Shown in pieces: positions 10,679 to 54,581 of a stretch of DNA of 64,000 nt. Below the pieces are notes generated by a model. The model saw only the letters and a program-made list of their open reading frames with translations, ran no database searches and was not told where the DNA came from. The DNA is taken from the NCBI GenBank assembly GCA_965205505.1, contig CBDBHB010000009.1, forward strand, positions 2,176,001 through 2,240,000, written 5' to 3'. Source of the stretch: Acidobacteriota bacterium. GTDB lineage: Bacteria > Acidobacteriota > UBA890 > WLXD01. The number at the start of each line of letters is the position of its first letter. Positions within the stretch are counted from its first letter, which is position 1. A program made the position numbers and the translations under genes.

Positions 10679-11716
10679 ATGCATAATATGTCCGATGCGC
10701 AGGCAACTGCACCGAAACCCAGCCCTCGGCGCAAGAGCGGCAAGCACCCGGAGCGGGCCCTGTCGGCGGCGTTCGTACGCACGGTAATGAAGCCGGGCCG
10801 GTACTGCGATGGACACGGCCTGTACCTGAACGTGATCCCGAGCGGAGCGCGCAGCTGGGTACAGCGGATCGTGATCCAGGGCCGTCGCCGGGAACTGGGT
10901 CTCGGAGGCTACCCCTTGGTGTCGCTGTCGGAGGCGCGCGAGGTGGCATTTGCCAACCGCAAGCTGGCCCGTGCCGGCGGTGACCCGCTGACAGACAAGC
11001 GCCGGGCCGAGGGCATGCCGACGTTCGCGCAAGCAGCGGCCAAGGTGTATGAGATGCACCGCCCCGGGTGGCGCAACGCCAAGTATGCGGCGCAATGGAA
11101 AACGGAGTTGCGCACCTATGCGTACGGGCGCATCGGTGAGATGCCGGTGTCGGAGGTGACGACGGCCGAGGTGTTGGAGGTACTGGGTCCGATCTGGCAT
11201 GACAAGGCCGAGACCGCACGGCGGGTGCGGGCGCGCATCGGTGCGGTGATGAAGTGGGCCATGGCGCAGGGGTACCGTGGCGACAACCCGGCTGGTGAGG
11301 CGATCACCCAGGCGCTGCCACGGCACCGCAAGCGGCGCCGGGTACCGCTATCGGGCCGGGCAATGGAGATCCTGCGCCAGGCGCGGGGGCTCAGGGATGG
11401 CGAGGGGCTGGTGTTTCCCGGCGCACGGGCCGGCAGGCCGCTGGCGGACGCAACGCTTTCCCGGGTGCTGCGGCAGCTGGGTATTGAAGCGGTACCGCAC
11501 GGGTTTCGCTCATCGTTCCGGGACTGGGCGGCGGAGTGCACCAACGCACCGCGGGCGGTCATGGAGGCGGCGCTGGCGCATGCGGTGCGCGACCCGACCG
11601 AGGCGGCCTATGCGCGCTCGGACCTGCTGGAGCGGCGCCGGAAGCTGATGGAAGACTGGGCCGCTTACCTGAGTGCTGAGGGCGGCAAGGTGGTGCCGAT
11701 GCTGCGCCCTGTCTAG
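10679..11716 (+). pseudogene. P4-family tyrosine integrase with arm-binding N-domain; internal deletion removes catalytic box I
   Basis: DGHGLYL and RELGLGGYP arm domain; HGFRSSFRDW...LAH...AY box II. ALPRHRK joins directly to RRVPLS with no R-x-G-E box I. Confidence 0.8.
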
Positions 11717-14906: not shown

Positions 14907-16177
14907 TGACCTGCCCGCCAATAATCGGGCCAGTTTGAGAGTTAGGAATTGAGGCTCTCAGGAAGGCTCGGGAAGGGGGAGAAATGGCCCGGAAGCGATA
15001 CACGGTAGAGCAGATCATCGCCAAGCTCAGGGAGGCAGAGATCGAGCTGGCGCAAGGAGCCAAGACGCCGGAAGCGTGCCGGAAGCTGGGCATCAGCGAG
15101 AACACGTAGTACCGGTGGCGTAAGGAGTACGGCGGGCTGAGGGTGGATCAGGCACGGCGACTCAAGGAGCTGGAGCGCGAGAACGGGCGGCTCAAGAAGC
15201 TGCTGGCGGAAACGATGCTCGACAACGCCATCCTCAAAGAGGTGTCGTCGGGAAACTTCTGAGCCCGGCGCGCCGGAGCCGGGCAGTGCGACACGCACAG
15301 CAGTCGCAGGGGGTGTCGGAGAGGCGAGCCTGCCGAGTGCTGGGCCAGGTGCGCTCGACGCAGCAATATCGGCCCAAGGCGCCTGGAGACGAAACACCGC
15401 TGGTGAAGCGAATGACCGAACTGGCGACGCAGTACGGACGCTACGGGTACCGTCGGATCACGGCTCTGATGGAATGCGAAGGGTGGCGGGTGAACCACAA
15501 GAGGATCGAACGGTTATGGCGTCGTGAAGGACTGAAGGTACCGAAAAAGCAGCCCAAGCGCGGACGCTTGTGGCTCAACGATGGATCGTGCGTGCGGCTG
15601 AGGCCGGAAAGGAAAGATCACGTGTGGGCCTATGACTTCGTGCACGAACGAACTCACGACGGGCGAGCGGTTCGTCTGCTGACGATCGTGGATGAGTACA
15701 CCAGGGAGTGCTTGGCCATCGATGTGGCGCGCAGGCTCAACTCCGAGAACGTGTTGGATCGACTCGCTGAGCTGTTCGTGAACCGTGGTGTTTCCGACCA
15801 CATCCGCTCCGACAACGGACCGGAGTTCACTTCTCGGGTAGTGCGTGGCTGGCTCGAGCGGGTCGGTGTGAAGACGTTGTTCATCGAGCCCGGCTCGCCG
15901 TGGGAAAACGGCTATGTGGAGAGCTTCAACGGCAAGCTACGCGACGAGCTGCTGAACGGGGAGATCTTCTACACGCTCAAGGAGGCGCAGAGCTTGGTGC
16001 AAGCCTGGCGCCGCAAATACAACCAGGTGCGGCCACACAGCTCGTTGGGCTATCGGCCGCCTGCACCGAAAGCGACGTTGTTAAAGCCGGCTACGCTCCG
16101 CTCCGCCGGCTGCAACAACCTCTTGCCAGCACCGATTCTATGAGTTACGAAGTGGCCTCAACACTTGGGGCAGGTCA
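14907..16177 (+). mobile_element. IS3-family element A, copy 1 (orfA has TAG at 15107; orfB DDE ends at 16143)
   Basis: TGACCTGCC...GGCAGGTCA ends; 1271 bp; GGGAAAC frameshift window; [22 protein letters not shown]. Confidence 0.93.
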
Positions 16178-19670: not shown

Positions 19671-21964
19671 TGACCTGCCCCTGGAAACTGGACGCATCGA
19701 AGCGAGAAAATCTCCGTAATCGAAAGAGGAGGAGAAACTCGTGAAGAGGTCCCGATTCAGCGACGCGCAGATCGTCACGGCGATCAAGCAGGTGGAGCTC
19801 GGCGTACCGATTCCGGAGTTGTGCCGCAAGTACGGGGTCAGCCAGCAGACGTTTTATCGGTGGCGCAGCAAGTACGGGGGGTTAGCGCCGAGCGAGCTGC
19901 GACGGCTCAAAGAGCTGGAGCGGGAGAACGGTCAACTCAAGAAGCTGGTAGCCGATCTGAGATTGGACAAGCAGATCCTCCAGGATGTGCTGGCAAGAAA
20001 AGTCTGAGGCCCGCGCGCAAGCGCCAGCTGGTGCGTCGAACCCGACAGCGGTACCAGATCGGGACACGCCGCGCGTGCGGGCTGATGCAACTTCAGCGCA
20101 GCAGTTTCTACTATCGGCACCGAAAAGATCCGCAGGAGGCACTGCGACTCAGAATCCGCGACCTGGCGGCGGCCCGGCCGCGTTACGGATATCGACGATT
20201 GCATGTGCTGTTGTGCCGGGAGGGCTGGAAGATCAACGCCAAGCGAGTGCTGCGGCTCTACCAGCAGGAGAGACTGCAGTTACGAACGCGACCCCGTCGG
20301 CGAAAGGTCGCGGCGCGGCCGCGGGCTCATCTGCCGGCCCCGTCGGCACCCAACGAGCGGTGGAGTCTGGACTTCGTCAGCGATGCTCTGGCCAACGGCC
20401 GGAGGTTCCGCGTGCTCACGGTGATCGACATCCACAGCCGCGAATGCCTAGCGCTGGAGGCGGACGTGTCGCTGCCCTCCAGGCGAGTCACGGACGTGCT
20501 CGAGAAGGTCGTGGCGCAACGAGGTGCGCCGATCGCCTTGACGCTCGACAACGGCACGGAGTTCACTTCCAACCACTTCACCAAGGCCCTCGAGTACCGC
20601 CTGTACACCGAAGGCTCGGCCGCATACCAGATGGCTTCTCGCGCCCCCGTCCGCAGCCTGCTGCTGTGAGGTGGTGCAAACTCCACGGGGGTGACCCAAA
20701 CCCCGAAAACGGTGCCAGGTTGATGTTTAGGAAATCGGTGTACCGTCGTCCTCCAAGCAGGAGGACAGATGAAGCGGAAGAGGTACACGGACGAGCAGAT
20801 CGCCTACGCGCTGCGGCAGGCTGAGGCGGGCACGCCGATCAAGGAGGTGTGTCGCAAGCTGGGCGTCAGCGAGCAGACGTTGTACACGTGGCGCCGCAAG
20901 TTCGCCGGGATGGGCGTGGCCGAACTTCGGGAGCTACGACAACTCCGCCATGAGAACCGGAAGTTGAAGCAGCTGGTGGCAGATCTGAGCTTGGACAAGC
21001 ACATGCTCCAGGAGGTGCTGTCAAAAAAGGTGTGAAGCCGGCGCGCAAGCGCGAGGTGGTGCGGTACCTGCAGGACGGGTTCCGTGTCAGTGAGCGTCGA
21101 GCGTGTCGGCTGATCGAGTTGTCGCGCACCAGCCATCGGTATCAGAGCACAAGGACGGACGACCCCGTGCTGCGGCGTCGTCTTGGCGAGCTCGCCGCGG
21201 CGCGTCCGCGGTTCGGGTATCGGAGGTTGTGCGTGTTGCTACGCCGCGAGGGATGGGTAGTGAACCAGAAGCGCGTGTATCGGATCTATCGAGAGGAGGG
21301 GCTGGAGGTACGGACCAAAAAGCGACGGCGCAAGCGGGCGAGTCACATACGGCTTGTGCTGCCGCCCGCAGAGCGGCCCAACGAGCGCTGGAGCATGGAC
21401 TTCGTGACCGATCGGCTCGAGAGTGGCCGGCCGTTTCGGGTGCTGACGGTGGTCGATCAGTTTAGCCGTGAATGTCCGTTACTTGAGCCGGGCGTGTCGA
21501 TGACCGGCAAGGCGGTGGCTGGAGCACTCGAGCGGCTGTCGTTTGCCGGGCCGTTGCCACGGGTCATCACCGTCGACAATGGCTCAGAATTCTACTCCCA
21601 GGCGATGGACTCCTGGGCGTACCGAAGAGGCGTGCAGTTGGAGTTCATTCGGCCGGGAAAGCCCGTGGAGAATGCGTTCATCGAGAGTTTCAACGGACGG
21701 CTTCGCGACGAATGCCTCAACGCCAACCTGTTCTTCTCGATCGATGACGCGCGCCGAAAACTGGAGGCTTGGAGGCTTGATTACAATACCCACAGACCAC
21801 ACAGCTCACTGAACGATCGAACTCCTACGGAGTTCGCCAGGGGCTGGCAACCGGAGGCTTCGGAACACCGAATCCTAAACCTCTGACTGGTACTGATTTC
21901 GGGGTGGGGTCAATAGCCCGGAGAACTCACACTCGCACTGGCTCAGTTTTCGGGGAGCACGTCA
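19671..21964 (+). mobile_element. IS3-family element C: orfA 19741-20007; orfB truncated at about 20580; right IR at 21941-21964; contains IS D
   Basis: IRL tgacctgcccctggaaactg pairs with IRR cagttttcggggagcacgtca; orfB stops after DNGTEFTSNHF. Confidence 0.8.
20692..21912 (+). mobile_element. IS3-family element D, copy 1 (orfA 20769-21035, orfB 21032-21886)
   Basis: TGACCC...GGGTCA ends; AAAAAAG frameshift site; intact DDE; near-identical copy at 48176. Confidence 0.93.
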
Positions 21965-26910: not shown

Positions 26911-28181
26911 TGACCTGCCCCCCAATAATCGGGCCAGTTTGAGAGTTAGGAATTGAGGCTCTCAGGAAGGCTCGGGAAGGGGGAGAAATGGCCCGGAAGC
27001 GATACACGGTAGAGCAGATCATCGCCAAGCTCAGGGAGGCAGAGATCGAGCTGGCGCAAGGAGCCAAGACGCCACAGGCGTGCCGGAAGCTGGGCATCAG
27101 CGAGAACACGTACTACCGGTGGCGTAAGGAGTACGGCGGGCTGAGGGTGGATCAGGCACGGCGACTCAAGGAGCTGGAGCGCGAGAACGGGCGGCTCAAG
27201 AAGCTGCTGGCGGAGACGATGCTCGACAACGCCATCCTCAAAGAGGTGTCGTCGGGAAACTTCTGAGCCCGGCGCGCCGGAGCCGGGCAGTGCGACACGC
27301 ACAGCAGTCGCAGGGGGTGTCGGAGAGGCGAGCCTGCCGAGTGCTGGGCCAGGTGCGCTCGACGCAGCAATATCGGCCCAAGGCGCCTGGAGACGAGACA
27401 CCGCTGGTGAAGCGAATGACCGAACTGGCGACGCAGTACGGACGCTACGGGTACCGTCGGATCACGGCTCTGATGGAACGCGAAGGGTGGCGAGTGAACC
27501 ACAAGAGGATCGAACGGTTATGGCGTCGTGAAGGACTGAAGGTACCGAAAAAGCAGCCCAAGCGCGGACGCTTGTGGCTCAACGATGGATCGTGCGTGCG
27601 GCTGAGGCCGGAAAGGAAAGATCACGTGTGGGCCTATGACTTCGTGCACGAACGAACTCACGACGGGCGAGCGGTTCGTCTGCTGACGATCGTGGATGAG
27701 TACACCAGGGAGTGCTTGGCCATCGATGTGGCGCGCAGGCTCAACTCCGAGAACGTGTTGGATCGACTCGCTGAGCTGTTCGTGAACCGTGGTGTTTCCG
27801 ACCACATCCGCTCCGACAACGGACCGGAGTTCACTTCTCGGGTAGTGCGTGGCTGGCTCGAGCGGGTCGGTGTGAAGACGTTGTTCATCGAGCCCGGCTC
27901 GCCGTGGGAAAACGGCTATGTGGAGAGCTTCAACGGCAAGCTACGCGACGAGCTGCTGAACGGGGAGATCTTCTACACGCTCAAGGAGGCGCAGAGCTTG
28001 GTGCAAGCCTGGCGCCGCAAATACAACCAGGTGCGGCCACACAGCTCGTTGGGCTATCGGCCGCCTGCACCGAAAGCGACGTTGTTAAAGCCGGCTACGC
28101 TCCGCTCCGCCGGCTGCAACAACCTCTTGCCAGCACCGATTCTATGAGTTACGAAGTGGCCTCAACACTTGGGGCAGGTCA
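26911..28181 (+). mobile_element. IS3-family element A, copy 2 (orfA 26988-27266 intact)
   Basis: Near-identical to 14907-16177; TAC where the other copies have TAG. Confidence 0.93.
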
Positions 28182-28737
28182 CGACCGTGCCGCGGACGCC
28201 TCATCGGCGATCTTCGTGCGACCCTTCTCAGTGATCGACCACCGGTCCTTCTTCTGAATGCGCTCGGCCTTCACCAGGTCATCGACCCGGAGCCGAGCAA
28301 GGGCCGAACGGGTATCGTCATGAGTGAGAGTCACGCGTTCGTTGCCGCCGACCTCAATCTGATTGAGTTTGCCGACAGATTCCCCGCGTTCGTCCTCTGA
28401 CCCCCTGAGGTTCAGTAATACAACGTTGTCTATCACCGTTTGACGAATCGGCTGCGTCTCGGGCGAAAATTGAAGCCTGTATCCGAAGACTGCAAGCCGC
28501 CCTCGACCAGCGTCGGTATCAGACATGAGTCTCGATCATGTTGAGCGCGATTACGCCTTGTCCGCCCGATGGTGAGCCTCCTGGGTTCATCAGCTCTGCT
28601 GGTTTGTGGATGACGTGTCCACGGCAAACGGTGCGGAACCGCGGTAGGTTGTCGGTATGGAGAGCCGGTTTTTCGAGAGTCCGATCCGACCCCCGAGGGT
28701 TGTCCATAATCCTCTCATTCTATTCATTTTGCACATG

Positions 28738-28811
28738 TCGGGGTGAGAGGATTGGAACCTCCGGACCCCTGCTCCCAAAGCAGGTTCACTTCCAAGCTGC
28801 GCCACACCCAG
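28738..28811 (-). tRNA. Degenerate tRNA-Pro(TGG), probable pseudo-tRNA
   Basis: Minus strand reads CTGGGTGTGGCGCAGCTTGGAAGTGAACCTGCTTTGGGAGCAGGGGTCCGGAGGTTCCAATCCTCTCACCCCGA. Anticodon and T arms pair; acceptor and D stems have mismatches. Confidence 0.7.
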
Positions 28812-30427: not shown

Positions 30428-30967
30428 CTCTTATCGTGCTGCATGAAGAGAGGCCAGCTGGTTCTGTGCCGCATGGCGGATGGGCGCGCCACATTGCTGC
30501 GTGTGCTGTCCGTGACCGATCAAACAGTGGAACTCACCACTGCTGCAGGGCCGCCCGCCTGGTACCGGCGCACAGAGGTGTTCCGGATGGATGGGGCACT
30601 CCTGGCGGCGCTGGTACGCGCCCGCGCTGCCGGCGACACCGAAGCCCTGGAGGCGCTATGGGACCAGGCAGTGCCCTGGGCACCTGGAGGAGCAGGACGG
30701 GTGAAGGGTACGGCACGGGCGCGCCGGTGAAGGTCGGCTCCCTGTGCTAGCGACCCGAAGATAGGGCAATCAGAGGCAGCGATGCGTGGTGTAGTTGCAG
30801 CCCCGGGTGCGATTGTGGCCTCGGCGCTCGGTGTGTTCAGGGCTCCCCAGAGGTCCGGAGAAGTTCGCTTCATTCCCAGATTTAATGGTGGGAATAGTGA
30901 GGTGATAGCCTACTAGAAGTTCCTGTAATGTATTGTGAACAAATACTTTAGTTGCATTACTATGGCG
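30428..30967 (+). repeat. Second copy of the satellite right end (matches 21965-23688 minus IS630)
   Basis: Similarity ends exactly at ACTATGGCG, which abuts the truncated hsdM. Confidence 0.85.
30443..30730 (+). CDS. Small hypothetical protein; paralogue of 21980-22267
   Basis: Direct sequence similarity. Confidence 0.55.
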   Translation: MKRGQLVLCRMADGRATLLRVLSVTDQTVELTTAAGPPAWYRRTEVFRMDGALLAALVRARAAGDTEALEALWDQAVPWAPGGAGRVKGTARARR

Positions 30968-32027
30968 TCGAGCTTCTGATCCTCGACAAGGATCTTGCGC
31001 AGGGCCTTGTGCGCCTTGCTCGATCCAAAGAGCACGCCGTCGGGCACGATCACGGCAGCGCGGCCGCCTGTCTGTAGCAGGCGCAGGAAGAGCACGAGGA
31101 AGAGTAGCTCGGTCTTCTTGGTCTTGACGATCTGCTGCAGGTCCTTCGCCGTGGACTCGTAGTCGAGGCTGCCGGCGAAGGGGGGATTGGCGAGGATCAG
31201 AGAGTACTTCTCTGCATCGTCCTCGTCAGACTCCGCGAGCGAGTCCCGGTAGCGGATGTCCGGGTTCTCCACGCCATGCAGCAGCATGTTCATGCTGCCG
31301 ATGCGCAGCATGGTGTTGTCGAAGTCGTAGCCGTGGAACGTGCCCTCGTTGAAGCGGCGACGGGCGGCGGTGTCCTTGTAGATCGTGTCGCTGTGGTGCT
31401 CGACGAGGTACTTGGAGGTAGCGATGAGGAAGCCCGCCGTGCCGCACGCCGGATCGCAGATCACGTCCTTCGGCGCGGGCGCGGTCATGTCCACCATCAG
31501 CCTGATGATGTGGCGCGGGGTGCGGAACTGCCGTTCTGCCCGGCGGTGGCGATCTTGCCGAGCATGTACTCGTACAGGTCGCCCTTGGTGTCGCTGTCGG
31601 CCATGCCAATGCCGTCGAGCTGGTCGACCACGTTGGCAAGCACCCGGGCCGTGGGCATCATGAAGAGGGCGTCCTTCATATGGTGGGTGTAGGTGCTGCC
31701 GCCCTCACCGTCGGTCCCTCCCCGTTGCCCGAGGGTCTTGATGAAGGGAAACACGCCGTCACGGACTGCCTCGAACATCTGCTCCGGGGCGGCCTCCTTG
31801 AAGCGCGACCAGCGGATCTTGTCGTGGCCGGCGGCGAAGATCGGCCTTTCGATGGGCTCGCCGATGCGGGCGGCCTTGGCTTCCTTGAGCGTCTGCAGCT
31901 CGTCGAGGCGCTTGATGAAGAGCAGGTAGGTGAGCTGCTCGATGACCGAGAGAGGGTTGGAGATGCCCCCGGACCACATCGTGTCCCAGATGCGGTCGAT
32001 CTTGGATTTGAGTTCGCCGGTGATCAT
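30960..32027 (-). pseudogene. hsdM: Type I restriction-modification M subunit, frameshifted (about 31530) and 3'-truncated
   Basis: MITGELKSKIDRIWD, GQNG/QFRTPRHII frameshift, DPACGTAGFL, NPPF, PDGVLFG. Confidence 0.88.
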
Positions 32028-36895: not shown

Positions 36896-38054
36896 AGCGC
36901 CTCCGGGGCCGGTGGTCGGTAGCCCAACGAGCTGTGCGGTCGCATGCGGTTGTACTGCTGCCTCCATCTCTCGATCAGAACCTTTGCCTCCTTGAGCGTG
37001 TAGAAGATCTCGCCGTTGAGCAGCTCGTCTCGGAGCTTGCCGTTGAAGCTCTCCACGTAGCCGTTCTCCCACGGCGAGCCCGGCTCGATGAACAGCGTGC
37101 CCACACCGAGCCTACCGAGCCAGTCGCGAACCGCCTCGGCGGTGAACTCCGGTCCGTTATCGGACCGGATGTGCTCAGGTATGCCCCGGTGCACGAACAA
37201 CCACCCGAGCCGCTCGAGCACGTCCTCACAGTTGAGCTTCCGTGCCACGTCGATCGCCAGGCTTTCTCGTGTGTACTCATCGACGATCGTCAGCAGCCTC
37301 ATAGCCCGACCCTCGTGCGTCCGGTGATGAACGAAGTCATACGCCCAGACGTGATCTTTGCGCTGTGGTCGCAGCCGGATGCACGAGCCATCGCTGAGCC
37401 ACAGCCGGGCTCGTTTGGGCTGCTTTGTCGGTACTTTCAGCCCCTCACGCCTCCAGATACGCTGCACTCGTTTGTGGTTCACCCACCAGCCCTCCATACG
37501 CAACAACGCCGTCACTCGCCGATACCCGTAGCGCCCGTATTGTCGGGCTAGATCCACGATCCGCTCCGTCAACATCTGCTCATCGCCCGGTTCTCTTGGC
37601 ATGTACCTGTGTGTCGTGCGTGGTTGTTTCAGTACCCGGCACGCCCGCCTCTCGGAGACGCCCAGCCGCCCCTGTACATGCGCCACCGCCTCGCGCCGTC
37701 GAGCTGGGCTCAGAAGTTTCCCTCCGCGACTTCCTTCAGGATCGACAGGTCGAGCTCTTTCTCCGCCACCAGTTTCTTGAGCCGGGCGTTTTCTTTCTCC
37801 AGCTGCTTGAGCCTTCTGGCCTGGTTGACCTTCAGCCCCCCGTACTCCCGCCGCCACCGATAGTAGGTGTGCTCGGTGATCGCTAGCTTGCGGCAGGCAT
37901 CCTTGACCGTCCCGCCTTGCGCCTGCTCCACTTCAGCCTCCCGGAGCTTGCGTACGATCTGCTCGGCGCTGTGCCTCTTCGTCGGCATTCTGACCTCCCC
38001 TTTTCGACCCAGATCGTGAGATTACCTCTGGATCCGTTTTGGGGGGTCAGGTCA
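36896..38054 (-). mobile_element. IS3-family element E, copy 1 (orfA 37710-37988; right end lost), nested in a remnant of IS F
   Basis: DDE motifs; left IR at 38031-38054. Flanks 36833-36895 and 38055-38104 match the IS F remnant at 53031-53145 in inverted orientation. Confidence 0.85.
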
Positions 38055-38129: not shown

Positions 38130-38439
38130 TGTTACCTCAGTGTTACCTAACGAGCCATTTGGCCTCCGAACAAACGGGCAGGGGGATTCGGCTTCGTTCG
38201 CCGAATCCCCCTTCATATCAACGGCTTGCACCAAAATGCCCAAGGAGGGACTTGCCCCCCACGAGCTTGCACCCACTAGGTCCTGAAAACAATCCAGCAG
38301 TTTACCGCCCTGTGGCGTCCCTTACCGCTCCTTAGCCCAACATACGTGTTGTCAACCACTTATTATGTGACCGTCGTTCATGCTCTTGGTGTCGCTCATT
38401 GACGCTCGTTGACGGTACGTTTGTTAACCGGCTGTTAAC
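38130..38439. other. attP-like site: tRNA-Leu 3' core (38237-38287), IHF consensus and paired arm repeats on both sides
   Basis: TGTTACC x2 (38130, 38141); TATCAACGGCTTG = WATCAANNNNTTR (38216); TGTTAAC x2 (38422, 38433); abuts the integrase 3' end. Confidence 0.65.
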
Positions 38440-39619
38440 TCGCACCGCCCTCAACAACGGTGAAGCGTCGGCGCTTGGCGGCGCGGATCGTCTCGTCAAG
38501 ACGGCTCATCGCCCGTTCGCGCTGAGAGATCATCACGTGGCCGTAGAGGTCGCCGGTGATCTGCACGCTGCTGTGGCCGAGTTGCTCGCTCGTGTACTTG
38601 AGGCCTTCGCCCTGGCGTAGCAGCAGGCTGGCGAAGGTGTGACGCAGGCTGTGCAGTGTGATGCCCTCACGCAGGCCAGCGCGCTCGCGCAGAGGCCTGA
38701 AGACGCGTCGGTACCAGGAGTTGGGATCGTGCGGTTTACCGGTGGAAGTGCGAAAGACGAAGTCGCTGTGCATCGGCGGGTTCGCCTTCCGGTGTCGTCT
38801 CAGCGCGTCGATTACTGAGGCGGGAGCGTCGACGGTTCGTTCCGAGCTCGAGGTCTTCGTCTCCGTGACCCTTCCGTTGTAGACCGAGCGTCGTACGTGG
38901 ACCCGAGCACCGTGGTCCTGATGAGCCTCAACGTCATGCCACTTCAAGCCGAACGCCTCGCCTCGACGAAGCCCGAGAAACAACATGACATGGATGAGGG
39001 CGTTCGCTTCGCAATCCTCTGAGGTGGCCGCGAGCAACACCGCCATGTCGTCTTCTTCGAGGAACTCGGCTTCCCTCTTTCGCACTTTGAGCCTCTGTTG
39101 TCCGACAAGGGGATCGCCGGCAAGGTAGGCGCGGGCAGGGTGCCGAGCCCACTTGAAGATCTGCCGCGCGAGCGTTAAGACGTTGTTGAAGCTCTTCCGC
39201 GCCATATCGCCCGCATCGACCTTCTCGGCAAGACCAGCTCGCCACTCCGCCATGACCGTCGGCGTAAGTCGATCGCTTCGGTACCGGCCCAGGCCTCCGG
39301 CGTACTCAACGTCGTCAACCTCTGGGGCGAGGTGGACCCTGACAAGGCAGGTTGCCGTCGCCGCCGTGCTGGCTCGGACTTCACCCAGCTTGACGCGCGT
39401 ATCGAGGTCCTCGACCCACGCAGCGAAGACATCCTTCATGAGCTCTGGCTGCACTTTTTGAAAGGTCCCGTCCTTGACCTTCTTCTGAGCCTCCACGAGG
39501 AATGCGTCGGCGTCCTTTCGGCGTTTGAAGCACTTGCCGTGCTGTTTGCCAGCCTGGTCTCGCCAGTACGCATACCAGCGCGGTCCGGAAATCGTCAGTC
39601 GCTTGTGGATGCTCGCCAT
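38435..39619 (-). CDS. Tyrosine integrase (probably tRNA-Leu targeting)
   Basis: GLRRGE, TKT, HSLRHTFASLL, LGHSS..T.DLYGH: full catalytic set. Confidence 0.92.
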   Translation of the reverse strand: MASIHKRLTISGPRWYAYWRDQAGKQHGKCFKRRKDADAFLVEAQKKVKDGTFQKVQPELMKDVFAAWVEDLDTRVKLGEVRASTAATATCLVRVHLAPEVDDVEYAGGLGRYRSDRLTPTVMAEWRAGLAEKVDAGDMARKSFNNVLTLARQIFKWARHPARAYLAGDPLVGQQRLKVRKREAEFLEEDDMAVLLAATSEDCEANALIHVMLFLGLRRGEAFGLKWHDVEAHQDHGARVHVRRSVYNGRVTETKTSSSERTVDAPASVIDALRRHRKANPPMHSDFVFRTSTGKPHDPNSWYRRVFRPLRERAGLREGITLHSLRHTFASLLLRQGEGLKYTSEQLGHSSVQITGDLYGHVMISQRERAMSRLDETIRAAKRRRFTVVEGGAS

Positions 39620-42955: not shown

Positions 42956-43543
42956 ATGTCGATCATGCCAACCTTCGCCGCACCCCGTACTCGAGAAGGG
43001 ACACCTTGTTGCCGGTGTGTGGCTGCAGGGGCGCTGTGCTACCAGCATCGCCACCGGCAAAAGACGCAAAAGACGCAGCTTAAAAAGAGCCAGAAGCGCC
43101 GGGCGAGAGCTGCCAGGAAGACGACGAAGTTCACCGCGCGCCGGAGAGCTCGTTACCTGGAACTGCTGGCGAGCGGTGCGCTGCGCGGTGCAGCCGCGAA
43201 GGCCGTTGGCGTTGGCCGCAGCACCCCGCTGCGGGCAATGCGCGACGAGCCCGACTTTGCTGCCGCGGTCGAAGAAGCCGAGATGCAGGCAGACTCGGAG
43301 GTTCAGCGAGCACTGTTCCTAGCGGCCACGGAAGACCGGAATGTCACCGCGATGCAGGTGTGGCTGTACAACCGCGTACCGGGCGCGTGGGTGAATTCGC
43401 AGCGACGCGAAGTACACCACAAGATCTCGGACTCTGAACGTGTGCGTTTTGCGCAGGCGGCGGCCACGGCGGGGCTCAATGAGTCTCAGATCGAGACGCT
43501 TGCGCGGGCTCTTGAAGGTGCCGACGAGGACACGGAGCAGTGA
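42956..43543 (+). CDS. Putative terminase small subunit (HTH)
   Basis: RYLELLASG..AAKAVGVGRST...DFAAAVEEAE..NVTAMQVWLYNR; lies directly upstream of TerL. Confidence 0.6.
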   Translation: MSIMPTFAAPRTREGTPCCRCVAAGALCYQHRHRQKTQKTQLKKSQKRRARAARKTTKFTARRRARYLELLASGALRGAAAKAVGVGRSTPLRAMRDEPDFAAAVEEAEMQADSEVQRALFLAATEDRNVTAMQVWLYNRVPGAWVNSQRREVHHKISDSERVRFAQAAATAGLNESQIETLARALEGADEDTEQ

Positions 43544-44982
43544 CGATGACCACGGCTCCCGCGCACACGGCACGGCTGCTGCGCGAGATCGGGGCCGCGC
43601 GCGGCGACGGCACGCTGGGCCAGTTCGTGCGCCGCGCCTGGCGCATCGTGGAACCGCACACGGACTACGTTCATAGCTGGCACATCGAGGCGTTGTGCGA
43701 GGTGCTGGAATCCGTGAGCGCTGGCGACATCCCGCGCCTGATCGTCAACGTGCCGCCGGGCACCATGAAATTGCTGCTGGTGTCAGTGTTCTGGCCGGCG
43801 TGAGAGTGGGCCGAGAGGCCGGGCCTGCGCTACCTCGCCGCGTCCTACGGCTCGGACCTGTCGCGGCGTGACAACTTGCGGCTGCGCGGGGTGATCGCGT
43901 CGCCGTGGTATCGGGACTACTGCGGCCTCCGGCTCGTCGAGGATCAGAACACGAAGACGCGCATGAACACCACAGCCGGCGGCTGGCGCATCGCCACGTC
44001 GGTAGGCGGTGTGGGAACCGGCGAGCACCCTGACCGGATCATCATCGACGACCCGATCACAGCCGCTAACGCGCGATCCTTAACCGAGCGGCAGGCGGTA
44101 CTGGACTGGTTCACGCAAACAGTGAGTACGCGCGGCGTCGCACGCGACAGCCGCACCGTGGTCGTAATGCAACGGTTCCACGAGCAGGATTTGGCCGGGC
44201 ACCTGCTGAATATGGGGAGCTGGCGGCATGTGTGCTTTCCCATGCGGTTCGAGCCTGAACGTTCCGATCCTTACGACGTGCGCACCGAGGCCGGCGAGCT
44301 GTTGTGGCCGGCGCTGTTTCCCGAGGCGGCCGTGCGTCAACTCGAACGCGATCTCGGGCCGTATGGAACCGCCGGGCAGTTGCAACAGCGGCCAGCGCCG
44401 CAAGGTGGCGGGCTGTTCAAGCGCGATTGGTTCGAGATCGTTGACGCGGCGCCGATTGATGCGCGGCGCTGTCGTGCATGGGACACCGCGAGCACCGAGG
44501 CCGGCGGTGACTACACCGCCGAAGTTCGCATGGCGAAGACGGCCACCGGGCTGTACTTCATCGAGCACGTCTACCGTGCCCAGAAGTCAGCGCATGGCGT
44601 GGACGTGGCGATTCGCTCGCTCGCCAGCAGTGACGGCACCGCGTGCCTGATCCGCGAAGAGCAAGAGCCCGGCTCCAGCGGCAAGGCTGTGATCGAGGCG
44701 CGACGGCGGGTTCTCGCGGGACACGATTACGGCGGCGATCGGGCGACGGGTGACAAGGTTGTGAGGGCGGGTCCGCTGCGCTCGCAAGCCGAAGGCGGCA
44801 ACGTGAAGCTCGTGCGCGGCGACTGGAACGAAGAGCTTCTGCAAGAGCTGGAGAGCTTTCCGTATGGCGCCCACGATGACCAGGTGGACGCGGCCGCGCT
44901 CGCCTTCAACACGCTGGCCGAGCCGCCGAAGAAGGTGAAGCGAGGCGGGACGTTTGGCCGGGCTTATCGGCGGGACTGGTGA
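43540..44982 (+). pseudogene. Terminase large subunit with a nonsense codon (TGA at 43801)
   Basis: RLIVNVPPGTMK, WPA*EW, IIIDDP, VMQRFHEQDLAG, QLQQRP, AWDTA..GDYTA, HDDQVDA. Confidence 0.88.
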
Positions 44983-44999
44983 GTACGAAAGGCAGGGAC

Positions 45000-45197
45000 A
45001 TGTAGGGACCCCGGAAGATCGACCCGGACGATACGTACCTCACCGTCACGGAGGCGGCGACGAAGTACCGCCTTCACCCGAAGACGATCCGCAAGTGGAT
45101 CCGGTGCCATGTCGTGTACGTCGGGCCACTCCGCACCATCCGGATCCGGGATTCGGACATGATCGACATCCAGACACCGACTCGAGGCGAAGAGTGA
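45000..45197 (+). pseudogene. Excisionase-like HTH fragment
   Basis: YLTVTEAATKYRLHPKTIRKWI; stop directly after the ATG. Confidence 0.55.
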
Positions 45198-45493
45198 CGC
45201 TCCGTGAACTCCACCGGCTGGTCGGCACCGAATGGCTGGGCAGCCGCGAGTACGGCGGCCAGCTGCATCTGCACGAGGCCGGGAGCGTGTCGGTGGTGGT
45301 CGTTTGCCGGCCGGTGTAATAGTCCGCACGGCAATCCCGTCGCACGACTACTGGAGGCGCACATGGCCGACCGGCGTCGTCTTGGGGGTACTGCGAAGAC
45401 TGCTGGTAGGCATTTTAGGGTGCCGGTTGCCTGCTGTCAGCACCGGATGCCGGTGATCGTCGGGGGGCGGGTGGACCTGCTGGACGTGGGGTG

Positions 45494-45522
45494 TTGACAT
45501 ACGATAAATTACTTATGATAAT
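45494..45522 (+). promoter_or_regulatory. Sigma70-like promoter of the Cre-like gene
   Basis: TTGACA (45494-45499), 17-nt spacer, GATAAT (45517-45522). Confidence 0.65.
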
Positions 45523-45541
45523 TAATCTTATCATAAGTAAT
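45508..45541. other. lox-like recombination site ATTACTTATGATA-ATTAATCT-TATCATAAGTAAT
   Basis: Perfect 13-bp inverted arms around an 8-bp spacer (34 bp), AT-rich, adjacent to the Cre-like gene. Confidence 0.75.
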
Positions 45542-46544
45542 GACCCTCGAGATGAGCCCCATGACAACCCCCTCCAACAGTCGGGTTCCGAGCCTCCGGC
45601 CGGCCCCGGAGTCGGGCTCCGTTCCGGCCCGTGCCGCCCGCGATGCCGCCGCAACCCTGGCGGCCGCCTCGATGTCCGACAACACGCGCCGCGCCTACAC
45701 CGGCGCGCTGCGCCGCCTCGAGGCCTGGCTCGATGGCACCCCGCTCACCGACAATTCCCTCGCCGTCTATCTGGGCTCGCTGTTCGAGGCCGGCCGCTCG
45801 CCGGCGACGGCCTCAATGATCGTTGCGGCCGTACGGGCGCAGTACCGCCTCAGTGGAGAGCCCTCGCCCGTAGGCGAGGCCACGGCACGGGTTCTGGCCG
45901 GGTTCCGCCGCACTGGAGCTGAACGCTCGCGCGGACCGGCCACCGGCGTGCAATGGGGCCAGGCCGACGCTGCGGCCGCCGTTGCCGCCAACGGCTCCAA
46001 GAGCAACCACGGCTTGCGCGACGGGGCCATCGTCGCGGTCGGCTCGGCGGCGATGCTCCGGGTCTCGGAGCTGTCCGCGCTGCGCTGGAGCGACATCGAG
46101 GCCGACGGCGATCACACGATCACACTGCGCCGCTCCAAGACGGATCAAGAGGGGGCCGGAGTGACGCTCTACATCGGCGAGCCAACGGTGGCACGCCTGG
46201 AGGCCTGGCATGAGGCGCTGGGGGGGATCGGTGGTGACACCGGGCCCGACGCACCGGTGTTCGTGCGGTTGCACAAGGGCGGGCAGCGTGCGGGCTCCGA
46301 GCCGATCTCGGCCACGGCGCTGCGCGCCATTATCGCCCGGCGCTGCGCCAACGCGGGCGTGGAAGGCCGGGTGTCGGGCCACTCGCTGCGCATCGGTGCC
46401 GCACAGGACCTCGCCGCCGCGGGCGCTTCCCTGGTTGAGATGCAGCAGGCAGGCCGCTGGCTCTCGCCCACCATGCCGGCACGCTACGCTCGCGGACAGC
46501 TCGCCACCCGGGGTGCTGTGGCGCGGCTGCGCTTCGGCCAGTAG
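45540..46544 (+). CDS. Cre-family tyrosine recombinase
   Basis: SDNTRRAY; RDGAI...LRVSEL; RSKTD; SGHSLRIGAAQDL; GRW; ARY (R-K-H-R-W-Y pattern as in Cre). No arm-binding domain. True start may be 45552 or 45560-45672. Confidence 0.88.
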   Translation: MTLEMSPMTTPSNSRVPSLRPAPESGSVPARAARDAAATLAAASMSDNTRRAYTGALRRLEAWLDGTPLTDNSLAVYLGSLFEAGRSPATASMIVAAVRAQYRLSGEPSPVGEATARVLAGFRRTGAERSRGPATGVQWGQADAAAAVAANGSKSNHGLRDGAIVAVGSAAMLRVSELSALRWSDIEADGDHTITLRRSKTDQEGAGVTLYIGEPTVARLEAWHEALGGIGGDTGPDAPVFVRLHKGGQRAGSEPISATALRAIIARRCANAGVEGRVSGHSLRIGAAQDLAAAGASLVEMQQAGRWLSPTMPARYARGQLATRGAVARLRFGQ

Positions 46545-46687
46545 CGTGGCCGCCCACAATCCGCTCTCTCTGGCACCCAGTGCTCATCCGGGCAGCACGT
46601 GGTTGCGATTTGCGCGGGGGCGCAAGTACCTTCCGGGCTACGAGCGAAATCTCCCACCACCAGCCATCGCAAAGCTTGCGTGACCGC

Positions 46688-47215
46688 ATGGCCCGTCTCG
46701 AGGGTAAAGTCGAAACGCTGATCGCGGCGTTCACGAAACCCGGTACAAGAGCCGCAGCTGCGGTGGTGTTTCTGGCGGCCGGCAGCCTGGCCGTCGCTGC
46801 GCAGGAACGAGGTCCGGACCGCGAGCCGCAGATCGCTGCGCAGTACCGCGAGGAGCTGCAGCCGGACGTTATGCTCGTTGACAAGCTCGGCCGGCAGCGG
46901 CCAGGCAATCGCTGCGGTACGCCGCCGTATACGGGGCCGCTGGACCCGGTTGCTTATCTATCGGACGACCGCGCCGCACCCACCGAGGTGCCAGTGTGGT
47001 TTCACGTGCTGTACCACAGAAAGAAGGGCGCGGACGTTGGCCGCGTTTCGGAGGCGGCAATCGAGGAGCAGATGGACGTGCTGAACGCATCCCTCAAGCG
47101 GCACGGGCTCACCTTCATGCTCGCCGGCATCACGTACACGAACAAGAAGTTCTGGTCGCGGCGGTGCTCCAAGCACGGGGCGGAGCTCCACGATTCGCTT
47201 CCACTGCCATTCTAG
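46688..47215 (+). pseudogene. N-terminal fragment of an M43 (ulilysin/pappalysin-like) metalloprotease
   Basis: RCGT cysteine switch; VPVWFHVLY; IEEQMDVLN; no HEXXH, truncated. Confidence 0.6.
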
Positions 47216-47263: not shown

Positions 47264-49447
47264 TTAGCCATAGCGCCTCCAGCCCAGCCAGTCGCGAACG
47301 GCCGCGGCAGTGAACTCAGGTCCGTTATCCGACCTGATGTGATCGGGTATTGCCCGGTGCACGAACAGCCACCCGAGCCGCTCGAGCACTTGCTCGGAGT
47401 TGAGCTTGCGCGCCACGTCGATCGCCAGGCTCTCGCGGGTGTACTCGTCCACGATCGTCAACATCCTCATGGACCGGCCATCGTGCGTCCGGTCATGGAT
47501 GAAGTCATACGCCCACACGTGGTTCTTGCGCTCCGGTCGCAGCCGGATACACGAGCCATCGTTGAACCAGAGCCGGGCTCGTTTGGGCTGCCTCTTCGGC
47601 ACTTTCAGGCCTTCGCTACGCCAGATCCGCTGCACTCGTTTGTGGTTCACGAGCCAGCCCTCCATGCGCATCAACGCCGTCACCCTCCGGTACCCATAAC
47701 GTCCATACTCCCGAGCTAACTCCACGATCCTGTCCCTCACCAGTTGCTCGTCGTCCGCCGGCCTCGGCACGTATCGCGGTGTCGTCCTGGGCTGCCTGAG
47801 CACCCGGCAGGATCGTCTTTCGGTTACGCCCAGCTGCCGTCGTACGTGAGCTACCGCCTCGCGCCGACGTGCTGGGCTCAGAAGTTTCCCTCCGCGACCT
47901 CCTTGAGGATCGCCAGGTCGAGCTCCTTGTCCGCCACCAGCTTCTTGAGCCGGGAGTTGTCCTTCTCGAGCTGTTTGAGCTTCCGCGCCTGGTTCAGCTT
48001 CAGCCCGCCGTACTCGCGCCGCCACCGGTAGTAGGTGTGCTCGGTTATCGCTAGCTTGCGACAGGCATCCTTGACCGTCGCGCCTCGCGCCAGCTCCACT
48101 TAACCCTCCCGGAGCTTGCGCACGATCTGCTCGGCGCTGTGCCTCTTGACCGGCATTCTGACCTCCCTTTCTGGTTGACCCAAACCCCGAAAACGGTGCC
48201 AGGTTGATGTTTAGGAAATCGGTGTACCGTCGTCCTCCAAGCAGGAGGACAGATGAAGCGGAAGAGGTACACGGACGAGCAGATCGCCTACGCGCTGCGG
48301 CAGGCTGAGGCGGGCACGCCGATCAAGGAGGTGTGTCGCAAGCTGGGCGTCAGCGAGCAGACGTTCTACACGTGGCGCCGCAAGTTCGCCGGGATGGGCG
48401 TGGCCGAACTTCGGGAGCTACGACAACTCCGCCATGAGAACCGGAAGTTGAAGCAGCTGGTGGCAGATCTGAGCTTGGACAAGCACATGCTCCAGGAGGT
48501 GCTGTCAAAAAAGGTGTGAAGCCGGCGCGCAAGCGCGAGGTGGTGCGGTACCTGCAGGACGGGTTCCGTGTCAGTGAGCGTCGAGCGTGTCGGCTGATCG
48601 AGTTGTCGCGCACCAGCCATCGGTATCAGAGCACAAGGACGGACGACCCCGTGCTGCGGCGTCGTCTTGGCGAGCTCGCCGCGGCGCGTCCGCGGTTCGG
48701 GTATCGGAGGTTGTGCGTGTTGCTACGCCGCGAGGGATGGGTAGTGAACCAGAAGCGCGTGTATCGGATCTATCGAGAGGAGGGGCTGGAGGTACGGACC
48801 AAAAAGCGACGGCGCAAGCGGGCGAGTCACATACGGCTTGTGCTGCCGCCCGCAGAGCGGCCCAACGAGCGCTGGAGCATGGACTTCGTGACCGATCGGC
48901 TCGAGAGTGGCCGGCCGTTTCGGGTGCTGACGGTGGTCGATCAGTTTAGCCGTGAATGTCCGTTACTTGAGCCGGGCGTGTCGATGACCGGCAAGGCGGT
49001 GGCTGGAGCACTCGAGCGGCTGTCGTTTGCCGGGCCGTTGCCACGGGTCATCACCGTCGACAATGGCTCAGAATTCTACTCCCAGGCGATGGACTCCTGG
49101 GCGTACCGGAGAGGCGTGCAGTTGGAGTTCATTCGGCCGGGAAAGCCCGTGGAGAATGCGTTCATCGAGAGTTTCAACGGACGGCTTCGCGACGAATGCC
49201 TCAACGCCAACCTGTTCTTCTCGATCGATGACGCGCGCCGAAAACTGGAGGCTTGGAGGCTTGATTACAATACCCACAGACCACACAGCTCACTGAACGA
49301 TCGAACTCCTACGGAGTTCGCCAGGGGCTGGCAACCGGAGGCTTCGGAACACCGAATCCTAAACCTCTGACTGGTACTGATTTCGGGGTGGGGTCATGGT
49401 CCCAGATCGTGTGATTACATCTGGACCCGTTTTCGGGGGTCAGGTCA
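47264..49447 (-). mobile_element. IS3-family element E-like, copy 2 (truncated; orfA has a stop), interrupted by IS D
   Basis: Similar to 36896-38054; left IR at 49424-49447. Confidence 0.85.
48176..49396 (+). mobile_element. IS3-family element D, copy 2 (orfA 48253-48519, orfB 48516-49370)
   Basis: Near-identical to 20692-21912; 4-bp target duplication TGGT. Confidence 0.95.
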
Positions 49448-53310: not shown

Positions 53311-54581
53311 TGACCTGCCCCCCAATAATCGGGCCAGTTTGAGAGTTAGGAATTGAGGCTCTCAGGAAGGCTCGGGAAGGGGGAGAAATGGCCCGGAAGC
53401 GATACACGGTAGAGCAGATCATCGCCAAGCTCAGGGAGGCAGAGATCGAGCTGGCGCAAGGAGCCAAGACGCCGGAAGCGTGCCGGAAGCTGGGCATCAG
53501 CGAGAACACGTAGTACCGGTGGCGTAAGGAGTACGGCGGGCTGAGGGTGGATCAGGCACGGCGACTCAAGGAGCTGGAGCGCGAGAACGGGCGGCTCAAG
53601 AAGCTGCTGGCGGAAACGATGCTCGACAACGCCATCCTCAAAGAGGTGTCGTCGGGAAACTTCTGAGCCCGGCGCGCCGGAGCCGGGCAGTGCGACACGC
53701 ACAGCAGTCGCAGGGGGTGTCGGAGAGGCGAGCCTGCCGAGTGCTGGGCCAGGTGCGCTCGACGCAGCAATATCGGCCCAAGGCGCCTGGAGACGAAACA
53801 CCGCTGGTGAAGCGAATGACCGAACTGGCGACGCAGTACGGACGCTACGGGTACCGTCGGATCACGGCTCTGATGGAACGCGAAGGGTGGCGGGTGAACC
53901 ACAAGAGGATCGAACGGTTATGGCGTCGTGAAGGACTGAAGGTACCGAAAAAGCAGCCCAAGCGCGGACGCTTGTGGCTCAACGATGGATCGTGCGTGCG
54001 GCTGAGGCCGGAAAGGAAAGATCACGTGTGGGCCTATGACTTCGTGCACGAACGAACTCACGACGGGCGAGCGGTTCGTCTGCTGACGATCGTGGATGAG
54101 TACACCAGGGAGTGCTTGGCCATCGATGTGGCGCGCAGGCTCAACTCCGAGAACGTGTTGGATCGACTCGCTGAGCTGTTCGTGAACCGTGGTGTTTCCG
54201 ACCACATCCGCTCCGACAACGGACCGGAGTTCACTTCTCGGGTAGTGCGTGGCTGGCTCGAGCGGGTCGGTGTGAAGACGTTGTTCATCGAGCCCGGCTC
54301 GCCGTGGGAAAACGGCTATGTGGAGAGCTTCAACGGCAAGCTACGCGACGAGCTGCTGAACGGGGAGATCTTCTACACGCTCAAGGAGGCGCAGAGCTTG
54401 GTGCAAGCCTGGCGCCGCAAATACAACCAGGTGCGGCCACACAGCTCGTTGGGCTATCGGCCGCCTGCACCGAAAGCGACGTTGTTAAAGCCGGCTACGC
54501 TCCGCTCCGCCGGCTGCAACAACCTCTTGCCAGCACCGATTCTATGAGTTACGAAGTGGCCTCAACACTTGGGGCAGGTCA
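53311..54581 (+). mobile_element. IS3-family element A, copy 3 (orfA has TAG at 53511)
   Basis: Near-identical to copy 1, including the nonsense allele. Confidence 0.93.

Follow-up and report, generated by a model that had tools for sequence, protein, structure and literature searches.

In a 64,000-nucleotide (nt) stretch of an Acidobacteriota genome (GenBank assembly GCA_965205505.1, contig CBDBHB010000009.1, positions 2,176,001 to 2,240,000; hereafter the window), we found a gene for a Cre-type tyrosine recombinase that is directly preceded by a perfect 34-base-pair (bp) lox-like site and by a promoter match running into that site. Promoter, 13-8-13 site and intact recombinase gene probably constitute a self-contained Cre-type module, and the enzyme and the site are, judging by comparison with related loci, very likely cognate. 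The strongest support for reading the palindrome as the target of the enzyme comes from natural recombination in relatives, where co-varying spacer pairs and a segment present in both orientations indicate, indirectly, that this family recombines lox-like sites in nature. The site of the window is solitary in the assembly, a status that we hold with high confidence.

Lox-like site, promoter and recombinase gene

The site spans 45508-45541 on the forward strand and consists of a left 13-bp arm (ATTACTTATGATA, 45508..45520), an asymmetric 8-bp spacer (ATTAATCT, 45521..45528), presumed to be the region of strand exchange, and a right 13-bp arm (TATCATAAGTAAT, 45529..45541) that overlaps the first ATG of the open reading frame (ORF) by 2 nt. 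Direct reading confirmed the perfect inverted arms and asymmetric spacer that an earlier note on this DNA, made from the letters alone, had described: the two arms are exact reverse complements of each other. The site is approximately 85% A+T and lies in a surrounding kilobase of 66.8% G+C. Perfect inverted repeats of 13-8-13 geometry number five in the 5.98-Mb genome, one of them abutting this recombinase gene; 32 such repeats carry one mismatch and 228 carry two. In the left arm, position 7 is a T and positions 10-13, adjoining the spacer, read GATA. Since no T run follows the repeat, the palindrome is unlike an intrinsic terminator; the sole terminator-like match near the site is weak and lies on the minus strand (45558-45542).

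Overlapping the left arm is a sigma-70-type promoter match, TTGACA-17-GATAAT (45494..45522, + strand; −35 hexamer at 45494-45499, −10 hexamer at 45517-45522), which the earlier note had also pointed out. A promoter scan bore this out, with 11 of 12 consensus positions matched and two promoter-like sites in the interval 44800-46800, where 0.1 would be expected. The −10 hexamer straddles the junction of left arm and spacer, taking four bases from the former and two from the latter. A divergent promoter-like match (CTGACA-17-TAAAAT, 45440-45412, − strand) lies 55 bp to the left of the recombinase promoter. A divergent helper gene was considered and rejected, as the 96-amino-acid (aa) minus-strand ORF at 45074-45364 has an implausible sequence and no PHROG match; the plus-strand ORF at 44954-45319 likewise gave no match in searches that included PHROG.

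The recombinase gene (45540..46544, + strand; protein P0001) encodes 334 aa. Its start is not fixed, given the in-frame alternative ATGs at 45552 and 45561 and a stretch of residues 1-30 that is neither conserved in a 25-sequence alignment nor confidently modelled, scoring low in the AlphaFold prediction. All of the motifs named in the earlier note were located in the intact ORF: LRVSE at residues 173-177, RSKT at 198-201, GHSLR at 280-284, GRW at 305-307 and ARY at 314-316. Residues R174, K200, H281, R284, W307 and Y316 are invariant in the 25-member family alignment, and all six align with the catalytic residues of Cre, including the Trp that replaces the second His (R173, K201, H289, R292, W315 and Y324 in Cre, as given in Jelicic et al. 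2023, PMC10250229).

Comparison with Pfam placed Phage_integrase above the cut-off (E 3e-14) and no further family above it, with a SAM-like N-terminal domain narrowly under its cut-off (20.3 vs 22.3 bits). Sequence matches to solved structures were exclusively to Cre or Tre (17 of 17 distinct matches, E 1e-15 to 5e-14, residues 75-330), Tre being an engineered Cre variant. An AlphaFold model computed from the 25-member alignment (pLDDT 82.7, pTM 0.60) pointed the same way: Cre or Tre chains occupy Foldseek ranks 1 to ~30 (E 1e-12 to 1e-9, ~300-325 aligned columns), followed by XerA (3e-8) and then by integron integrase, lambda Int and XerD. TM-scores against Cre are moderate (~0.5-0.56), probably because of a different inter-domain angle in a model without DNA. 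With the NCBIfam models for XerC, XerD and XerS, the protein reaches 16-44 bits, far short of their cut-offs (267-335 bits). Its sequence, its catalytic residues and its predicted fold all identify the recombinase as Cre-type.

Lox-like sites and inversions in relatives

Searches of a protein database found 661 relatives of the recombinase among 8000 candidates scored; the best 120 of the 661 are 50-92% identical and come nearly all from metagenome assemblies, and proteins P0002-P0012 are 61-89% identical to the window recombinase. With each species represented by a single genome, 304 stretches were found to encode a relative, and the best 80 were used for locus comparisons. These 80 come from metagenome-assembled genomes (MAGs) of Poribacteria, Latescibacterota, Dadabacteria and other Thermodesulfobacteriota, Binatia and Acidobacteriota, as well as from Gammaproteobacteria, Chloroflexota, Nitrospinota, Spirochaetota and Actinomycetota. 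The names of the MAGs (Poribacteria, Poriferisodalis, Poriferihabitaceae, Latescibacterota, Dadabacteria) point to hosts that are sponge symbionts. In several relatives, the genome carries three to four recombinase copies.

An inspection of the upstream regions of homologues, which the earlier note had put forward as a check, revealed lox-like sites beside the gene in relatives. Inverted repeats of 13-8-13 geometry with at most two mismatches occur between −300 and +60 at 11 of 79 loci, compared with 1 of 71 and 1 of 68 in upstream control windows and 2 of 80 in a window inside the gene. In the orientation of the gene, AT.....T is a frequent spacer pattern among related sites. Arrangements with two sites are present in about 30 of the 80 relatives, and these fall into two main forms, in which the inverted sites enclose either a short upstream segment or the whole gene.

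At nine loci (L010, L011, L012, L013, L014, L018, L024, L050 and L068), two inverted sites lie upstream of the gene and their spacers are exact reverse complements of each other, although six different spacer sequences are represented across the loci. The same upstream arrangement recurs exactly in L016, L017 and L080 and with one mismatch in L083 and L027. At the nine loci, the arrangement lies at about −370 to −100 before the gene, and the ~145 bp between the sites carry TTGACA-17-TATATT directed toward the recombinase gene, as in an invertible promoter switch. The 171-nt inter-spacer segment of L011 matches that of L014 at 159 of 171 positions when inverted and at 99 of 171 in the direct sense, so L011 is flipped relative to L014; the inter-spacer segment of L024 is likewise flipped (123 identities inverted vs 90 direct), and at the remaining six loci the segment matches in the direct sense. 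On the far side of the switch, the gene in L012, L013 and L050 encodes a protein with a lipoprotein signal (...LAGC), so that at these three loci a lipoprotein gene is the second target of the promoter. The arms of these promoter-switch sites differ from one another, whereas those of the window site are identical.

In the second form, recognised in a scan for 16-nt inverted repeats, the whole recombinase gene lies between two inverted sites ~1.3 kb apart. It was found at 14 loci (L047, L049, L052, L057, L058, L060, L063, L066, L067, L075, L078, L079, L081 and L084). Among Pseudomonadales copies, similarity between copies stops at the sites, and L047 and L049 have additional long inverted flanks of ~180 bp. 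In L059, the recombinase gene is followed by tandem repeats with a period of ~117 bp (~5070-5540), which showed up as recurrent matches of one 13-mer.

A single site directly upstream of the gene is a third arrangement, shared by the window with L026, L038, L045, L071, L037 and L094. L094 is the closest relative at the DNA level and belongs to the same taxonomic family (64% identity; 60% over the 323 columns of the tree). A quick maximum-likelihood tree pairs it with the window (SH-aLRT 95) and groups the two with the single-site L037, next to the clade of promoter switches. L093 and L095, from the same order, are 5′-truncated and have no site. Across the order, matches reaching E 1e-40 or better are present in 3 of 26 genomes, the one studied here included, and in none of the four other genomes of the genus. 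In Latescibacterota, the single-site modules of L026 and L038 lie between leuS and mutL, with leuS flanks that are ~70% identical, and L045 is ~92% identical to L038 along the whole locus; the left arm of L045 agrees with the loxP arm at 12 of 13 positions. This shared position suggests long-term retention of the single-site module at one chromosomal place in Latescibacterota.

Invertible promoter switches are known from fimS with FimB and FimE and from Hin/hix. The relatives resemble these systems in flipping a promoter segment of ~145-270 bp, or the whole gene, but they pair a Cre-type enzyme with full 34-bp sites rather than short repeats of the Fim type or a serine invertase, and the window, with its single site, is not a switch as it stands.

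The placement of the promoter is also conserved. A strict promoter pattern (TTGAC[AT], 16-18 nt and a −10-like hexamer) occurs on the strand of the gene between −450 and +30 in 16 of 78 relatives, compared with 0-2 of 68-80 in five control windows and 0 of 78 on the opposite strand. In L026, L027, L038, L053, L080 and L083, as in the window, the −10 element is formed by the last four bases of the arm and the AT of the spacer, and in L094 TTGACA-18-GATAAT lies in the same register on the single site ATTGCATCCGATA-ATAGCTCT-TAACGGACATTAA. By analogy with Cre, two recombinase monomers would bind the two arms, and a site so occupied would cover the −10 element and likely the transcription start, shutting off the promoter of the enzyme itself. 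Given this conserved promoter-in-site design, it is reasonable to infer that the recombinase represses its own promoter, and we consider this somewhat better than an even prospect. With its −10 element formed at the junction of arm and spacer, the module offers a direct way to test whether a Cre-type enzyme regulates its own gene through its target.

Comparison with Cre/loxP, Dre/rox and published pairs

The earlier note held that the arms do not resemble loxP, which proved wrong. With the loxP arm taken from the P1 record NC_005856 and the rox arm from the D6 record AY753669, the window arm agrees with loxP at 9 of 13 positions (outer ATnACTT and inner ATA) and with rox at 9 of 13, while loxP and rox agree with each other at 10 of 13. 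A 9/13 match arises by chance in 0.8% of arm shuffles and in 1.5% of the A+T-rich 13-mers of the genome.

The module shares with Cre/loxP of phage P1 a tyrosine recombinase of ~340 aa in which Trp replaces the second His, a 34-bp target with perfect 13-bp arms and an asymmetric 8-bp spacer, and a target upstream of the gene with a promoter reading through it. It differs in protein sequence (27% identity over 270 aa by BLASTP), in four arm positions and in the spacer. Furthermore, the window site abuts the start codon and holds the −10 element, whereas loxP lies ~430 bp before cre with cra and promoters in between; the gene order in P1 is pacB, c1, coi, imcBA, lox, cra, cre, and promoter P4cre stands just before lox. 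Cre/loxP is hosted by a phage-plasmid, whereas the window belongs to a chromosome of 64% G+C and has no evident partner site or replicon context. Dre/rox of D6 likewise pairs a Cre-type enzyme with a site upstream of its gene (~150 bp), and, in addition to the 9/13 arm match in the 34-bp frame, the rox spacer reads AT.....T in the orientation of the gene. However, Dre is 34% identical over the C-terminal 184 aa only, and rox is annotated as a 32-bp site.

Systems of this kind, and the method of finding them, have already been published. Jelicic et al. 2023 (PMC10250229) searched for palindromes of 13-15 bp with an 8-bp gap within 1 kb of Cre-type genes and catalogued ~500 enzyme-site pairs, of which 17 were tested and 8 were active. 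In light of that work, the description of the window pair in the earlier note as a new Cre/lox-type system was overstated. The pair itself is absent from that list: a comparison with published Cre-like sites, also put forward in the earlier note, did not find the window arm anywhere in the supplement, including the 482 rows of Table S2. Active sites in that study are described as having G(T)-A-T(G)-A adjoining the spacer and T at arm position 7, and the window arm has both features (PMC10250229).

The Cre-type recombinases YR1-YR17 of the same study resemble the window enzyme in being paired with a palindrome near the gene, and the YR9 site (CGTCTGTCCGATA ATCTTTCT TATCGGACATACT) shares with the window site a GATA-AT...CT-TATC core. 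They differ in that the candidates were drawn from cultured-organism records in the NCBI nucleotide collection, and in that the sections consulted mention an embedded promoter for none of them. A homologue on the Methylobacterium indicum plasmid pVL1_3 (L104, 34% identity), which lies beside a VapBC pair, has a single 13-8-13 site (ATTATAACCGATA-ATAGGGCC-TATCGGTCGCAAT) ~65 bp before the recombinase gene, and this site resembles the predicted sites of YR13, YR14 and YR16 (PMC10250229).

The window thus adds one more candidate Cre-type enzyme/target pair. It might serve alongside Cre, since its arms differ from loxP at four of 13 positions and its spacer is different, and orthogonality to Cre is plausible. 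The practical gain is nevertheless small, because the published success rate is about one in two and hundreds of candidates exist (PMC10250229). The biological value lies more in the family, in which Cre-type enzymes appear to flip promoters or their own gene by means of promoter-bearing sites across many phyla, and to which the window copy adds a one-site form with perfect arms. A search of titles and abstracts in the open-access and bioRxiv literature found neither Cre-type invertible switches nor this family in sponge symbionts.

The single-site form and its surroundings

No partner for the window site was found in the genome. The full site is unique at up to three mismatches; both arms in 13-8-13 geometry (up to 9 of 26 mismatches) and the inner core in both orientations (up to 5 of 16 mismatches) return only the site itself, as does a search of the window for the arm at up to two or up to three mismatches. 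The spacer has eight other exact copies genome-wide, counting both orientations, and all of them are without TA flanks or arm similarity. One further candidate, C6:280839-280872, matches the right arm at 12 of 13 positions and was rejected as probably a chance match; its surroundings are A+T-rich and contain nothing similar to a recombinase. Exact-arm scans of public metagenome contigs and of viral contigs gave 0 matches each, and blastn of the site region against phages gave weak chance matches (best E 0.7). An invertible promoter or cassette switch, which would call for two inverted sites with reverse-complementary spacers ~0.1-1.5 kb apart, was rejected as well, no second site having been found in the window or the genome.

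The site is spanned, with few differences, by contigs of four sequencing runs that belong to four studies; no RNA run was among those listed as holding it. One contig from run X7 resembles the window only from 45488 onward, six bases ahead of the −35 hexamer, and carries unlike sequence upstream of that point, which suggests a compact unit, not a torn one. On one contig each from runs X4 and X5, position 45297 is joined to 46516 on opposite strands, away from the lox-like site; this joint may come from another copy or another organism.

With no partner site in the assembly, the enzyme could in cis only bind the site and repress. Two copies of the site would exchange strands within the 8-bp spacer, as the natural inversions indirectly indicate for the family. 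Recombination would be possible only between two molecules that each carry the site, such as sister chromosomes, or the chromosome and a circle bearing an identical site. We regard it as most likely that the module is a one-site representative of a lineage with two-site invertible promoter switches in its sister clade, and that it now resides in a prophage remnant ridden with insertion sequences (ISs). The perfect arms, the intact gene and the existence of single-site relatives argue for a stable one-site form.

Several observations weigh against the reading of a self-contained, promoter-bearing module with its cognate site. In about half of the 80 relatives, no site was recognised by the scans, and the enrichment of 13-8-13 repeats, although real, is not confined to the upstream region, as they also occur just behind the gene at 8 of 79 loci and further back at 4 of 78. 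Second sites behind the gene account for part of this downstream excess, and terminators may account for another part. The promoter is a consensus match alone, and that consensus may not reflect usage in the host. A genome with one site offers no natural recombination product, and no joint at the spacer was seen in the contigs of the four runs, a negative that says little because contigs drop rare variants. A partner may exist on unassembled DNA such as a plasmid, the assembly being 96% complete in nine contigs. Moreover, the tree is a quick one with SH-aLRT support only, and no more than 8 of 17 predicted pairs were active in the published survey (PMC10250229).

A bolder version of the preferred reading, which we offer tentatively and consider to have a minor chance of being right, is that the solo unit represents the minimal self-repressing block of a large family that has spread horizontally through many phyla. 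Under this proposal, the window copy would be active, not a relic, and would be kept by recombining in trans, for instance by capturing and releasing circles, while a phase-variation switch would result wherever a second inverted site arises.

It is unlikely that the window site is instead the leftover of a two-site invertible promoter switch or gene cassette, the partner having been lost through scrambling by ISs. The prevalence of two-site arrangements among relatives, with promoter switches in the sister clade making up 12 of the 18 rows of the tree group, would fit such decay, as would a region riddled with ISs and several truncated recombinase copies in the same genome. However, the gene is intact and its site has identical arms, whereas arms differ from one another in the switch sites; a single site with the promoter in the same register is likewise all that L037 and the closest relative, L094, possess; three single-site loci have been retained between leuS and mutL in Latescibacterota; and the X7 contig points to a compact unit.

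We consider it improbable that the module serves dimer resolution or circularisation of a prophage or plasmid, as Cre/loxP does for P1. The earlier note had proposed this role for the palindrome along with its being the cognate target; the latter part is supported by the recombination of such sites in relatives, and the former is disfavoured, as the site has no partner, neighbourhoods vary and the readable relatives are invertases. Terminase genes directly upstream of the module, the P1 gene order with P4cre before lox, and the Methylobacterium plasmid homologue with its single site by VapBC would all be in keeping with such a role. Against this, no two contexts agree among the relatives inspected (L094 has RelB, an IS and a helicase-HNH gene beside it, L026 and L038 lie between leuS and mutL, and L071 adjoins an amylase gene), and the prophage is fragmentary, with a split large terminase and IS copies on both sides. 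Nor is there a close homologue in phage or plasmid records: 50,697 phage records gave five weak matches, the best being Dre (34% over half the length), and 72,556 plasmid records gave 851 matching records, all below 60% and the best at 37% identity. A phage integrase with an attP site was rejected, as Pfam finds no arm-binding domain and there is no direct repeat of the site; the sole tRNA of the window (28737-28811) lies away from the site.

Chromosome dimer resolution of the Xer/dif type was rejected because the genome has its own XerD (349 bits, above the cut-off) and an XerC-like gene. XerS/difSL and XerH/difH are single-recombinase Xer modules with dif beside the gene, and the window module resembles them in having one tyrosine recombinase and one palindromic site directly upstream on a chromosome; unlike them, its enzyme scores far below the Xer model cut-offs and its genome has a true XerD. 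The GC-skew switch of contig C9 is at ~2.85-2.9 Mb, and the site, at 2.22 Mb, is ~0.65 Mb away.

A minimal mobile element, in which the unit of promoter, site and gene moves as a small circle and integrates at look-alike sites, is very unlikely. Such movement would account for the unrelated contexts and patchy distribution (the 3 of 26 genomes of the order and 0 of 4 others of the genus noted above), for the multiple copies per genome in relatives and for the truncated copies here. However, two hybrid sites would be expected after integration of the lox type, whereas neither the site nor a half-site recurs as a direct repeat around the gene here or in L026, L038, L045, L071, L037 and L094, which disfavours a mobile circle. 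Least probable is that the palindrome is only an operator, whether for the recombinase or for a different regulator, or a fortuitous hairpin, and is never recombined, for although it overlaps the promoter and lacks a partner, equivalent sites have recombined in relatives, the arm matches both loxP and rox at 9 of 13 positions, and the palindrome has the 8-bp spacer geometry of Cre-type targets and does not look like an intrinsic terminator.

Besides its one full recombinase copy, the genome contains a pseudogene and several 3′-end pieces derived from this gene or from related ones. These remnants (C9:2965944-2966779, C9:2999993-3000136, C9:1660094-1660222, C9:60113-60232, C9:62294-62389, C9:258236-258505, C9:3148515-3148701 and C7:417436-417705) include none with the 5′ part or a site. 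Downstream of the module lies the 5′ portion of a gene (46580..47215, + strand) that encodes a secreted metallopeptidase-like protein of the HEXXH type and whose product has no Pfam match. Its similarity to a full-length copy, which carries HEVGH (C9 ~2998829-2999953, − strand), ends at 47190, next to an IS, and ahead of that full-length copy nothing but the final 140 bp of a recombinase gene is present.

To the right of the module are nested IS3-family insertion sequences (47264..49447), and a related IS copy ends near 38054, so the interval of 38.1-47.26 kb lies between IS copies. Upstream of the module, the prophage remnant comprises genes for a small terminase (42956-43543, + strand) and a large terminase in two pieces (43540-43803 and 43876-44982, + strand), and a phage-type integrase gene lies at 38435-39619 (− strand). 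The wider surroundings form an IS-rich island (~10600-49450) with IS3-family copies, for example at 15286-16143, 20769-21886, 27290-28147, 48253-49370 and 53690-54547, together with an IS21 helper, a DDE_3 transposase, a further phage-type integrase (10679-11716) in addition to that at 38435-39619, and a split type I methylase (30913-32027).

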